From assembly GCA_046300655.1 (NCBI GenBank), contig JBKCLM010000070.1, positions 17,741-81,740 on the forward strand: DNA of 64,000 nucleotides, written 5' to 3'. Source of the stretch: Chloroflexota bacterium. Its GTDB lineage: Bacteria > Chloroflexota > Chloroflexia > Chloroflexales > Roseiflexaceae. Both the position numbers and the translations under genes were made by a program. The notes below the pieces were generated by a model. That model saw nothing but the letters and a program-made list of their open reading frames with translations, had not been told where the DNA came from and did no database searches. The first letter of the stretch is position 1, and each line of letters begins with the position of its first letter. Below, one piece after another: positions 24,294-31,283 of this stretch.

Positions 24294-25349
24294 ATGACGC
24301 ATACTGCAGGCATGTGGGAAGAACGTTGGCATCCATTACGCCAGGAGTGGGTAATTGTGGCCGCACATCGACAGAACCGACCGTGGATTGGCCAAACAGT
24401 CAAAAATATACCGCCCCCCGATCCTGTCTACGACCCCACCTGTTATTTATGCCCAGGTAACACCCGTGTCAGTGGTGCAAACAACCCCACATATCATGGT
24501 GTCTATGTGTTCGATAACGACCATCCGTGTGTGGGGCCGAATGCGCCTGATCCGGTGTCACCTGGATTCCCGTTTGTCAGTCGACGAGCCGATGGTATTG
24601 CACGCGTGGTATGTTTTAGTCCATTGCACAATTTAACGCTGGCGGAGATGAGTTTGCCCCACATCACCGACGTTGTCGGTGTCTGGCAACAACAAACTTA
24701 TGATCTAGGGCAACGTCCTGAGGTCAATCATGTGCTCTGTTTTGAGAACAAAGGCCAGGTCGTCGGTGTCTCAAATCCGCATCCGCATGGGCAGATTTAT
24801 GCCACAAACTTTGTCTTTAAAAGTGTTGAGGTGGAGTTGACCGCGAGCCAGACCCATTGGCGTGACCATGGTCGTGGTCTGATGGCCGATATTAATCAGG
24901 CCGAAATCGCCGATGGCCGGCGTGTGCTCTATGAGGACGAACACACCGTTGCCTACGTGCCGTATTTTGCGCGGTATGCCTACGAGGTCTATGTGGTGCC
25001 AAAGCGACGTGTTGCGCACTTTCATGCGTTAAACGACGCCGAGTCACTGTCGTTGGCCGCTGCCGTCCAAGCGATTACGATTCGTTTTGATAATCTTTGG
25101 CAAATGCCATTCCCGTATGTAATGGCGCTCCATCAGGCACCGACCGATGGTGGCAACTATGACTTCTATCATGCATTCATCCTCTTTCAACCGCCGTTAC
25201 GCCGTCCCGATTTGCTCAAATACTTGGCTGGTCCTGAGATTGGCGGCGGGAACTTTTTGAGTGATACGGCGCCCGAGCAAACGGCAGCACAACTCCAAGC
25301 CACAACGCTTTTGCACTATCGAAAAGGTGGGAATGATGCAACCACATGA
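24294..25349 (+). CDS. galT: Galactose-1-phosphate uridylyltransferase (type 1, HIT superfamily)
   Basis: [28 protein letters not shown] and the active-site block NPHPHGQIY. Start set at ATG 24294 by comparison with typical GalT N-termini, with GAGG 5 nt upstream. Confidence 0.85.
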
Positions 25350-27950: not shown

Positions 27951-28862
27951 ATGTTGCGTAAATCGCTACGAATTATTGTGTCGAGTGTTGCGATAGTTGG
28001 GCTTGTGGCAGGCATTTGGGCCTGGGATGAGATTGTCTATAATGTGCGTCTGCTGAATGCGTATCGGTTGGGTCAACAGTACTATGAGACACACCCGGCG
28101 ATTGCCAAAAACGTCGCATATGGCAGTCAGTCACATCAGCTGTTAGATATATATCAACCAGATGCACCGGGGAGTTACCCGGTGATTGTCTATATTCATG
28201 GTGGTGGGTGGAACAGTGGCAACAAAGAATTATACGCACTTGTCGCTCAGAAGCTCGTTCCGTATGATGTAGTGGTGGTGGTGCCTCGCTATCAACTGTA
28301 TCCGGATGCTACCTATCCGCAGATGCGCGATGATGTGGCGACTGCATTGTCGTGGACGGTAAACAATATTGCTAACTACAATGGTGACCCCGCACGCATC
28401 GTCTTTGGTGGTCAATCTGCTGGGGCGCAACTAAGTGCGATGACCGTTTTTGATAAGAGTGTGCTGGCGACACATCAACTGACTCCATCGGCTATTTGTG
28501 CTTACTATGGCATTAGTGGCGTTTATGATATAAATGCACAGTATCAATTTGAAGTGGATAATGGTCGGACAGCTCCGGTTATGACAGCAGTTATGGGGGG
28601 AGAGTCAGCCTTTGCCGCCACATCGCCAATCTCGTTTGTCCATGCCGATATTCCGCATACACTGTTGATACATGGTGACCAAGATGAGACTGTACCGTTA
28701 CAGATGTCACAAGACTTTGCGCGTGCACTGACCGATGCAGGCGCGACTGTATCACTGCAAATATACCCAGGTCGAGGCCATTCTGAACTATTGTTCTATA
28801 CATTAACGCAGTCTCCAGGACAGTTGATTGAGGATGTAATTGCGTTAACACGCGACTGCTGA
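27951..28862 (+). CDS. Alpha/beta-hydrolase (esterase/lipase, HGGG type) with N-terminal membrane anchor or signal
   Basis: VYIHGGGW oxyanion block, GGQSAGA nucleophile elbow, HGDQDETVP, GRGHSE. Start moved to ATG 27951; the track start is TTG. Confidence 0.8.
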   Translation: MLRKSLRIIVSSVAIVGLVAGIWAWDEIVYNVRLLNAYRLGQQYYETHPAIAKNVAYGSQSHQLLDIYQPDAPGSYPVIVYIHGGGWNSGNKELYALVAQKLVPYDVVVVVPRYQLYPDATYPQMRDDVATALSWTVNNIANYNGDPARIVFGGQSAGAQLSAMTVFDKSVLATHQLTPSAICAYYGISGVYDINAQYQFEVDNGRTAPVMTAVMGGESAFAATSPISFVHADIPHTLLIHGDQDETVPLQMSQDFARALTDAGATVSLQIYPGRGHSELLFYTLTQSPGQLIEDVIALTRDC

Positions 28863-28906
28863 TCGCGGTGTCACTAAGGTATGGCAGCCGCTCTGGATGC
28901 GGATCA

Positions 28907-29428
28907 TCATTGTGTGATGGTACGCACATCTTGTTCTTCCTTTTCATACGGTTCAAAAACATCGAAGAGCTCAGTGTTATCGACATCAGTAGTGGTGTGC
29001 TTCTTTGTTTGTTGTGTAATACGGTTAAGAGATCCAAGGTCATAGGTGCGGGTCAGTGCACCCCACGTGGTGTTGTGTACGCTGATGCGGCGCCAGTGTG
29101 CACTACTAATTGGCATGCGTAACGTGTAAATGACATCAAACGTTAGGATTGCATAGAGCTGATGTGCCCGCGGATGCGTGTGTTCCTCGGGGAGGTATGC
29201 ACAGCGCGGTGCGATGGTCATGGCGGACATGCTCGCCACATGGCGAATACAGTGTGGGTGCGTCGTATGCCAGCCTGGAATGTAGAAGGCCACCCAAGGC
29301 GAGTGTATGATGCGTGTGACATAACGCACTGGAATATGGTATTGCCGAGTCTGGATGAGGTGTTGCCAATCGGGTTGGCGTTTGACGATGGCAATGGTGA
29401 TGCCAGAGGTGGTGGTCAGCTGATGCAC
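28907..29428 (-). CDS. Hypothetical protein (173 aa) translationally coupled to the uvdE-like gene
   Basis: GGAGGG lies 9 nt upstream of GTG 29428. The protein MHQLTTTSGITIAIVKRQPDWQHLIQTRQYHIPVRY... belongs to no family I can name. The 262-aa track ORF extends it artificially through the tandem repeat. Confidence 0.5.
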   Translation of the reverse strand: MHQLTTTSGITIAIVKRQPDWQHLIQTRQYHIPVRYVTRIIHSPWVAFYIPGWHTTHPHCIRHVASMSAMTIAPRCAYLPEEHTHPRAHQLYAILTFDVIYTLRMPISSAHWRRISVHNTTWGALTRTYDLGSLNRITQQTKKHTTTDVDNTELFDVFEPYEKEEQDVRTITQ

Positions 29429-29578
29429 TGCCGTACTCCCTCCGATAGTTGTGATCGCCAAAGGTGTTGCCAATCGTGTTGGCGTTCGACGATAGCAATG
29501 GTGATGCCAGAGGTGGTGGTCAGCTGATGCACTGCCGTACTCCCTCCGATAGTTGTGATTGCCAGAGGTGTTGCCAAT
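29358..29578. repeat. 104-bp direct tandem duplication (2 full units plus a 13-nt third copy of the unit start)
   Basis: Units 29361-29464 and 29465-29568 differ at 5 of 104 positions. AGGTGTTGCCAAT recurs at 29358, 29462 and 29566. Confidence 0.95.
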
Positions 29579-30323
29579 GTGGTGGGGTGTGGTGGTGGCA
29601 TTGTTGGAGGAAGTGTGCCACGGCCCTGGCCCCTGCACTTGCTTCGACCTCGATGTCAAATGTATCACCGACGCGCGCACTGAGTTGACCAACAAAGTGC
29701 ATCAGTGTTGCCCAGTCAAGATAGGCACTATGGCGACCATGGATGTGTTTGTGGCGGTCGCCATAATCTGCGGTGTCCGGCGAGCTGATGTGGAGCAATG
29801 GTCGTCGTGACCCCCATGTGTGATAGCACTGTGTGGCGGCAATGATCGGTTGATATGGCCAGGGCGATTGAATATGATAGTGCAACCAATCAAAGATGAT
29901 AGGAATGCCTGATGCGCATAGATTATCAATCGACTGATTCGTGATCTCGATCGCAAGATATGTGCGTATGTGGGCCGGTATGGCTTGCAACGCCTGCCAT
30001 GTGTGTGGCGATGCTGATGGCATGTGGCAAATGATAACACCGTCATCTGCCTCGATATGACGCAGAAAATCGGCGTAGTCCGTGAGTTGTGAGATGATGG
30101 TGTGTGGTGCAACCAGCGGTGCATGAATCACACATCGCAACTGGTGCTGAATAAGTGTATGTCGGATTGCAATCGTTGTTGCACTATCAATTGGCGCAAT
30201 CGATGTGTGAGGGATACGTACGACACCATGCCCTAACTGATTTGCAGTTAGACAACGTGCTAATAGTCGTAATCCTGCTGTTGCATGGGGTGCAACCTCG
30301 AGCGTGCTACTGCCAAATCGCAT
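29520..30323 (-). CDS. uvdE: UvdE-like UV-damage endonuclease (TIM-barrel), divergent and short form
   Basis: IPIIFDWLHYH, PLLHISSP...GRHSAYLD and FDIEVEASAGARAV match UvdE blocks (FDxHHH, HLSSP...HADY, MIEAK.KD.A) from memory. AAGGAG lies 7 nt upstream of ATG 30323. The last ~19 codons lie in the tandem repeat. Confidence 0.6.
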   Translation of the reverse strand: MRFGSSTLEVAPHATAGLRLLARCLTANQLGHGVVRIPHTSIAPIDSATTIAIRHTLIQHQLRCVIHAPLVAPHTIISQLTDYADFLRHIEADDGVIICHMPSASPHTWQALQAIPAHIRTYLAIEITNQSIDNLCASGIPIIFDWLHYHIQSPWPYQPIIAATQCYHTWGSRRPLLHISSPDTADYGDRHKHIHGRHSAYLDWATLMHFVGQLSARVGDTFDIEVEASAGARAVAHFLQQCHHHTPPHWQHLWQSQLSEGVRQCIS

Positions 30324-30427
30324 ATGCTGACTCCTTGACAACCATGATTCCTGTCATGAATGTGCCAAGCAATCGCGCTGCGATTGAGCATTACACGAGG
30401 AGCGTGTACTACGGTGTACATAAGGTG

Positions 30428-30456
30428 ATTATAGAACAAATGTGCTAATTTGTCAA
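30428..30456 (-). promoter_or_regulatory. Perfect consensus sigma70 promoter (TTGACA-N17-TATAAT) upstream of the uvdE-like gene
   Basis: On the minus strand, TTGACA is at 30456-30451, followed by a 17-nt spacer and TATAAT at 30433-30428. The -35 element overlaps the stop codon of the MBL gene. Confidence 0.55.
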
Positions 30457-31283
30457 GGGGTAGATGGTGATTCGTCGTCCCACAACGATGGTTGATGGCC
30501 ACGCTGTGCTGGTCCCCATACGACGTGTTGATTGCGTGGGAGTGGTGTGATGGTGTGGTAGTACTGTGCACTCTGATGCATGTTTAGAACACTTCTGACG
30601 CTGCGGACTGCCAAATCGCTGGTATTTGCCTCATGCGATAAATGGGCTAACCAGGCAGTACGTCGGCGTTTGTTCTGTGCGATTTGTGCCAAAAACAAGC
30701 CTGCCTGTATGTTATCAAGATGCCCACGTGGACTAGCGATGCGTAGTTTGAGATGTGGTGCGTAGCTGCTCATATGCAGCCGTTCACGTTCGTGGTTGGC
30801 CTCGATTACGACCAAATCAGCATCACTACATGCGCTGACAAGTGTTTCATCCCACATACCCAAATCAGTTGCAATTACAGTGGTGATGCTATCGTGATGA
30901 ATTTTAATCGCCATCGGTTCAGCTGCATCATGTGATACGGGGATTGGTGTTACCTGCATGCCGGCGATGTTATACGACTGATTGGCGCTGAGAGGCACTG
31001 TCACAACCGATGGTGGCACACTCAATGCATGAAGTGTGCCACGACTAGCAAGGATGGGGAGATTGTAGCGTTTGGCCAGTGCAACGACGCTGGTAATATG
31101 ATCGCTGTGCTCATGCGTTACGATAATGCCATGGAGTTGAGTGGGAGTCGTGCCCAATTGACTAATGCGTTGGGTAATACTGCGTTGACTGATGCCTGCA
31201 TCAACGAGCAAACCGCCGTCATAGGTTGTTTGTACCAGTGTGGCGTTACCCGAACTCCCCGATGCTAGTGATACCACCTGCAT
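30453..31283 (-). CDS. MBL-fold metallo-hydrolase (YycJ/PhnP-like)
   Basis: MQVVSLASGSSGNATLV, THEHSDH, and further His/Asp blocks (VSHD, EANH). Confidence 0.85.
   Translation of the reverse strand: MQVVSLASGSSGNATLVQTTYDGGLLVDAGISQRSITQRISQLGTTPTQLHGIIVTHEHSDHITSVVALAKRYNLPILASRGTLHALSVPPSVVTVPLSANQSYNIAGMQVTPIPVSHDAAEPMAIKIHHDSITTVIATDLGMWDETLVSACSDADLVVIEANHERERLHMSSYAPHLKLRIASPRGHLDNIQAGLFLAQIAQNKRRRTAWLAHLSHEANTSDLAVRSVRSVLNMHQSAQYYHTITPLPRNQHVVWGPAQRGHQPSLWDDESPSTP

Follow-up and report, generated by a model that had tools for sequence, protein, structure and literature searches.

A 104-bp tandem duplication across the stop/start junction of two neighboring genes in a wild Chloroflexota population, probably formed through microhomology

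A 104-bp tandem array between two genes of a lake bacterium, in the window (the whole 64,000-nucleotide stretch of DNA analyzed here), is very likely a real, heritable microhomology-mediated tandem duplication (MTD), of an ordinary kind and tolerated at a gene junction. The duplicated segment spans the stop codon of a divergent UvdE-like gene and the start codon of a conserved downstream gene, so both gene ends are regenerated and both proteins are unchanged. The locus is a natural example of a microhomology duplication that survives across a stop/start junction for this reason, and of redundant halves that then decay and swap variants. It is probably a small near-neutral structural variant and not a new device. 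The features discussed below are as follows (positions in the window).

28907-29428, minus strand: conserved 173-aa gene of no recognised family, GTG start at 29428
29357-29370, minus strand: microhomology arm in the downstream gene, read as WQHL
29358-29585, unstranded: tandem array of two full 104-bp units plus a third microhomology arm (Tandem Repeats Finder, repeat search, sequence)
29358-29461, minus strand: unit 1, with the working SD (29443-29438) and GTG (29428) of the downstream gene and the mini-ORF stop (29418-29416)
29456 and 29461, minus strand: upstream end of unit 1, a redundant, mutated copy of the UvdE-like tail
29416-29532, minus strand: 38-codon chimeric mini-ORF (by translation), codons 1-24 being the start of the downstream gene and codons 25-38 the UvdE-like tail
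29461-29474, minus strand: joint copy of the arm, ending in CCTT
29462-29565, minus strand: unit 2, in which the UvdE-like gene has its working 3' end and its stop (29522-29520), plus the duplicate SD (29547-29542) and GTG (29532)
29462-29519, minus strand: downstream part of unit 2, which redundantly repeats downstream-gene codons 5-24; 29487 and 29494 carry derived changes
29520-30323, minus strand: divergent UvdE-like gene, 267 aa, ATG at 30323 as in relatives, stop at 29520
29565-29578, minus strand: microhomology arm ATTGGCAACACCTC in the UvdE-like gene, read as WQHL
29606-29614, minus strand: ACUUCCUCC in the UvdE-like coding region, with predicted pairing to the SD region GGAGGGAGU (RNA folding prediction)
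30428-30456, minus strand: perfect TTGACA-17-TATAAT promoter-like site upstream of the two-gene unit

Tandem Repeats Finder reported the array at 29358-29585 with a period of 104, 2.2 copies, 94% matches, no indels and a score of 407. A repeat search matched 29358-29461 to 29462-29565 at 95%, with 99 of the 104 bases identical, and found the short motif AGGTGTTGCCAAT starting at 29358, 29462 and 29566. The original prediction had described the duplicated stop/SD/GTG junction, its degree of identity and the recurrence of the motif, all of which were confirmed by these searches, and the identical peptides that it noted across three frames are seen in the ORF list. The five mismatched pairs (unit 1/unit 2) are 29373/29477, 29383/29487, 29390/29494, 29456/29560 and 29461/29565, and mismatch sites flank a 65-nt core that is identical between the units. 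On the minus strand each unit contains GGAGGG, 9 nt, a GTG, 7 nt and a TGA, at 29547-29542, 29532-29530 and 29522-29520 in unit 2 and at 29443-29438, 29428-29426 and 29418-29416 in unit 1. The GGAGGG and GTG spacing agrees with what had been proposed, and the TGA, placed there 11 nt after the GTG, begins 10 nt after its first base. The 104-bp unit has no other occurrence in the 3.24-Mb, 154-contig assembly, which rules out a dispersed repeat or MITE, and a search of 28700-30600 against Rfam gave no match at E <= 1. Among named genomes the nearest was a Roseiflexaceae MAG, which places the organism in the Chloroflexales.

In one-copy alleles the 14-nt sequence ATTGGCAACACCTC is repeated exactly and in direct orientation, with a distance of 104 nt between the two starts. 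One repeat belongs to the UvdE-like tail, where it is read within HWQHLW, and the other to the downstream gene, whose own frame reads it within DWQHLI. Two-copy alleles have three such arms at 104-nt spacing. The presence of two exact arms flanking the unit in the unduplicated allele, and of three after duplication, points to an origin by MTD. By our own calculation, ~3 close 14-mer pairs of this kind are expected by chance in 3.2 Mb. The population of the window (lineage A) has a sister lineage (lineage B) at 10.7% nucleotide divergence (30% at four-fold degenerate sites; ~90% identity of the UvdE-like protein), and the three lineage B contigs all have one copy and a downstream arm with G for A (DWQRL). 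Four other species of the genus (G015, G001, G017 and G010) share the gene order and also have one copy; the comparison with orthologous loci proposed alongside the original prediction thus shows a single copy in lineage B and in these four species. On these sequence comparisons, the duplication is best placed as a single event in lineage A after its split from B.

We infer that in lineage A the 3' end of the UvdE-like gene and codons 20-24 of the downstream gene both held ATTGGCAACACCTC, 104 nt apart. Misalignment of these arms by replication slippage or unequal exchange would have copied the intervening 104 nt. In the resulting array the first copy ends the UvdE-like gene, the second starts the downstream gene and the middle is redundant. 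This redundant middle forms the 38-codon ORF, with its own SD and GTG and a stop overlapping the real start. The redundant halves have since gained four derived substitutions, the units appear to have exchanged variants by gene conversion, and the one- and two-copy forms are polymorphic in the wild population. Many one-copy alleles may be secondary precise deletions via the 65-nt identical core, and the net fitness effect of the duplication would be small.

Three other explanations for parts of this sequence were considered. Because both proteins carry WQx(L/I) in all close species, the UvdE-like C-terminal 'PPHWQHLW' might have come from an earlier duplication; this was judged unlikely, given the '(V/I)PP.../IPA...' tail of distant UvdE-like homologues and the end of the similarity at the arm. 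Import of the joint variants from lineage B was ruled out, as B is without GCT, GAA, CTT and CGA. A clustering of joint mutations through error-prone synthesis was not significant, with three sites in 32 of ~91 redundant nt (P ~0.3, own estimate).

In S. pombe, MTDs form between arms of 4-25 bp and can revert to the wild-type sequence (PMC8639346); they also occur in bacteria, archaea and fungi, with depletion from coding regions (PMC13167724). As in those studies, a single-copy segment between short direct repeats has here become two units with three arms, the 14-nt arm lies within their 4-25 bp range (PMC8639346, PMC13167724), and the one-copy wild-type sequence coexists, the duplication being tolerated as the reading frames are unbroken. 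The array differs from them in that it is a standing polymorphism in wild metagenomes and not a de novo subclonal event, that it is known from sequences alone, and that its copies have since diverged at 3-5 sites.

Contigs from the wild were found by exact-protein look-ups with the UvdE-like protein, the neighboring hydrolase and variants of the downstream protein in ENA (MEGAHIT), JGI and Logan; a pattern scan of metagenome contigs gave one contig only, with two copies. The two-copy structure was present in 11 contigs including the window, from NCBI MAG, ENA MEGAHIT and JGI assemblies (samples ERZ27247978, ERZ27248008; JGI 3300057120, 3300027793, 3300031787, 3300057158, 3300031963, 3300042691, 3300057178 and 3300034200). 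All of them have GAA (29487), CTT (29461) and CGA (29456), which are specific to the joint, whose sequence in the two-copy allele is …GATTGGCAACACCTTTGGCGATCAC…. Since 11 independent contigs share the joint and these three substitutions, the two-copy array does not stem from misassembly. One copy was present in six contigs from this population, with near-identical flanks, one of them judged by gene spacing only (samples ERZ27248034, ERZ27247954, SRR14308756; JGI 3300057149, 3300057154 and 3300059473). Their sequence is that of the two functional halves joined, running from CTCTGGCAATCAC through the core to ATTGCCATCGTCAAACGCC, with no joint-specific variants. The coexistence of one-copy and two-copy forms in nature had been predicted and was found (6 vs 11 contigs, counts that rest on assembled contigs, which are consensus sequences and can be strain chimeras), and a three-copy allele was absent among these 17 contigs. 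Two Logan k=31 contigs start exactly at the first 31-mer unique to unit 1, as expected of a de Bruijn branch arising from two copies, and the Logan k=31 contig SRR14308756_46050 runs through the one-copy junction without a break.

With lineage B as the outgroup, GCT at 29494, GAA at 29487, CTT at 29461 and CGA at 29456 are derived, and all four fall within the redundant halves. The polarity is opposite for the remaining pair: 29477 has the ancestral CAC, and the working gene has the derived variant, CCC at 29373, a P/H polymorphism. The flanks have ~12 variable sites in 7.8 kb over 14 contigs (diversity ~0.03-0.1%), with 2 differences in 6.8 kb between the window and a one-copy contig. By our own arithmetic, the 3-4 changes in ~90 redundant bases amount to roughly one-fifth to one-quarter of the neutral divergence of the A branch. 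Because the changes in the redundant halves far exceed the polymorphism of the flanks, we infer that the duplication is much older than the present population diversity and younger than the split from lineage B. Alternatively, the three fixed changes within 32 nt of the joint could date from the duplication event, and the duplication would then be younger. The array had been called recent on the basis of its few mismatches, a view that does not fit with four of the five mismatches being derived and three of these being common to all two-copy contigs at such low flank diversity.

Copy number was seen with both alleles of the SNPs at 29373, 28541 and 30498. Two-copy haplotypes differ only at paralogous mismatch sites and can be ordered from 2d (three differences; L019, L042 and L043) to 2c and then 2a (the window), whereas haplotype 2b requires conversion of unit 2 by unit 1; these four-gamete and gene-conversion arguments are weakened by the fact that metagenome contigs are consensus sequences and possible strain chimeras. 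The population recombines, as indicated by the reassortment of flank SNPs among themselves and by one contig with a divergent imported tract. In that contig (L023, JGI 3300031963), 24866-25121 has fifteen differences in 256 nt in otherwise near-identical sequence, a pattern that resembles a segment acquired from a diverged lineage through homologous recombination. With regard to exact reversion, one-copy alleles equal the functional halves and copy number varies on several SNP backgrounds, but ancestral one-copy alleles together with recombination would produce the same pattern. We lean slightly toward secondary loss over recombination of ancestral one-copy alleles as the source of the one-copy alleles, as deletion via the 65-nt core regenerates exactly the one-copy allele. 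Work in E. coli leads to the expectation that tandem repeats of ~100 bp delete often, and it would then be somewhat surprising for a purely neutral two-copy form to persist for long.

The array had also been suggested to be unstable or phase-variable. Instability is partly borne out: copy number varies on several SNP backgrounds, and the units show an exchange of variants that resembles gene conversion. One-copy and two-copy states encode an identical UvdE-like protein (267 aa) and both have an intact downstream ORF of 173 aa, so the on/off switching of a phase-variable contingency locus is absent, and nothing supports phase variation. In the pneumococcal type 3 capsule gene cap3A, reversible tandem duplications inside the ORF switch the gene off (phase variation); the array resembles these in being a tandem duplication of tens to hundreds of bases that may be lost precisely, but it regenerates both gene ends and inactivates nothing. 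Bacterial minisatellite or VNTR loci, which are used in MLVA typing, are similar in their unit of ~100 bp, in a copy number that differs between strains and in their position at gene boundaries, whereas here there are one or two copies only, no longer arrays, and a unit that is unique in the genome.

The 173-aa gene was found in ten relatives, at 29-57% identity, and in each of them it immediately follows the UvdE-like gene. The family of the 173-aa protein has sixteen invariant columns (e.g., D20, Y30-H31, H85-P86 and W112-R113-R114), and the SD-preceded start codon is retained in most relatives; judged by this conservation, the ORF is a real gene. The protein had no sequence match in Pfam, NCBIfam or PDB. 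An AlphaFold model, based on six sequences only (pLDDT 72.5, pTM 0.68), had top PDB neighbors that were all EVE, YTH or ASCH, as weak matches (E ~3e-3, TM 0.35-0.45), and lends weak support to a PUA-like fold. The resemblance to these modified-base readers suggests that the protein may form a reader-plus-nuclease pair with the UvdE-like protein. Such a conserved pair of a UvdE-like nuclease and a possibly PUA-like protein may merit study above the duplication itself. The duplication also confuses gene callers, giving three gene models for one DNA. The C-to-T change at the joint (29461, minus strand) makes a TTG in frame with the downstream gene. The NCBI annotation takes this TTG as the gene start (184 aa, P0013) despite the lack of a preceding SD; given this two-copy DNA, other pipelines predict either a 173-aa product, or a 104-aa product and a 95-aa ORF in antisense.

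The upstream protein scored 16.1-16.2 bits against PF03851 (UvdE), below the gathering cut-off of 24, and had no NCBIfam match. PF03851 was matched by 7 of 12 genus homologues (best E = 7e-7), and the genus profile matched the T. thermophilus UVDE structure 3bzj with E = 2.2e-9, over profile positions 79-195 only. The family alignment has invariant H, D and E columns, whose correspondence to metal ligands is putative. The gene thus appears to be only divergently UvdE-like, and the label 'uvdE' given to it originally is too strong for a protein below the Pfam cut-off, though its family profile reaches Thermus UVDE structures. The TTGACA-17-TATAAT site lies ~100 nt upstream of the UvdE-like start, at the end of an MBL-fold gene. 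In lineage B, a JGI contig of 3175 nt encodes a UvdE-like variant (P0004) without 24 residues (IHGRHSAYLDWATLMHFVGQLSAH), including the region of the invariant H198. The edges of this deletion share a repeated 'H' codon context, which suggests a microhomology-type deletion, one that probably inactivates the protein.

The mini-ORF at 29416-29532 on the minus strand translates to VHQLTTTSGITIAIVERQHDWQHLWRSQLSEGVRQCIS* and is open in every two-copy contig translated; the insertion of a 38-codon ORF with the stop/start overlap geometry preserved, as originally predicted, is evident from this direct translation. It has the features of a coupled cistron, i.e., GGAGGG, 9 nt and GTG 29532 at its start and, at its end, a stop (29418-29416) that begins 10 nt past GTG 29428. 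As its SD, spacer and GTG are the same as those of the real gene, it is probably translated, and such signals can in principle relay translational coupling across it. Operons contain translationally coupled, overlapping stop/start junctions and short relay cistrons. Like these, the array has its SD within the upstream gene, a start that precedes the upstream stop by a few bases and a short ORF whose stop overlaps the next start, but this ORF is an accidental chimera of neighboring genes and not a conserved leader. The unit differences within the mini-ORF are 3 non-synonymous (K to E, P/H and Q to R) versus 2 synonymous, with no sign of selection on the peptide. In terms of the AlphaFold model, the peptide consists of the downstream protein's first beta-strand and half of a helix, followed by the UvdE-like tail.

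The SD regions GGAGGGAGU are at 29437-29445 and 29541-29549 on the minus strand. In the predicted folds, the partner of ACUUCCUCC is the single SD of the one-copy RNA and, of the two SDs in the two-copy RNA, the distal (real) one; the fold scores are weak (z = -1.6 and -2.9), and conservation of the pairing does not extend to G015. If the pairing is real, downstream initiation would depend on ribosomes translating the UvdE-like gene. We found no evidence for a regulatory role of the duplication.

That the duplication is fixed, and that the one-copy contigs are assembler collapses through the 65-nt core with no real polymorphism behind them, is unlikely. Passage through the core would indeed yield the exact one-copy sequence and remove the joint-specific variants, but the one-copy contigs come from three pipelines, carry both CAC and CCC at 29373, and include SRR14308756_46050, which is continuous across the site, where contigs of two-copy samples from the Logan pipeline are broken. 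The final k of 141 in MEGAHIT also exceeds the length of both the core and the unit, and lineage B and the other species show that one copy is viable. The converse, that the two copies arose artificially during assembly or amplification of the window's MAG, is extremely improbable: the genome is a 154-contig MAG, and tandem duplications can be artefacts, yet ten other contigs from independent samples and assemblers have the same joint and the three derived substitutions, and collapse or expansion artefacts do not generate differences such as the 3-5 between the copies.

Selection could alternatively have maintained the two-copy state as a translational relay or attenuator, with the mini-ORF passing on or damping ribosomes and gain or loss of 104 bp acting as a reversible, heritable switch of protein ratio; we consider this very unlikely. 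SD, GTG and overlapping stop are all intact in the duplicate, and every translated two-copy contig has an open mini-ORF, but ORF and signals are intact by construction, four or five substitutions rarely create a stop, and with three of the five differences being non-synonymous no constraint on the peptide is seen. Identity of the signal-bearing 65-nt core in both units, with all changes outside it, would fit a relay, yet the two real genes and gene conversion also keep the core constant. The difference between the folds predicted for one-copy and two-copy RNAs likewise has to be set against their weak scores (z = -1.6, -2.9) and the lack of conservation of the pairing in G015. The two-copy form seems old and yet persists beside the one-copy form; on the other side, junction-spanning duplications are those that purifying selection tolerates (PMC13167724). 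It is highly doubtful that the extra coupled mini-cistron resets the number of ribosomes reaching the PUA-like partner, with easy loss and rare regain of a unit making a reversible, heritable dial. If true, the dial would set the ratio of a damage or modified-base reader to the UvdE-like nuclease, and the population would keep both states.

An ordinary, tolerated MTD remains our preferred reading of the array, and similar arrays were found elsewhere in the genome. There are 49 tandem arrays with a period of at least 40, ~18 of them with periods that are not multiples of three, and most of these are at ORF ends or intergenic. This placement fits the published selection against such duplications in coding sequence and their tolerance elsewhere (PMC13167724). 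Several other arrays have two to three copies of 90-130 bp units that are not multiples of three and are 92-94% identical, again mostly at ORF ends or intergenic, for example:

C154:8811-9097, tandem array
C154:9214-9442, tandem array
C138:7358-7614, tandem array
C74:103554-103753, tandem array
C62:48147-48377, tandem array

Three records from Chloroflexales-like MAGs of the genus (L039-L041) are titled 'uncultured Klebsiella sp.', evidently a third-party labelling error.
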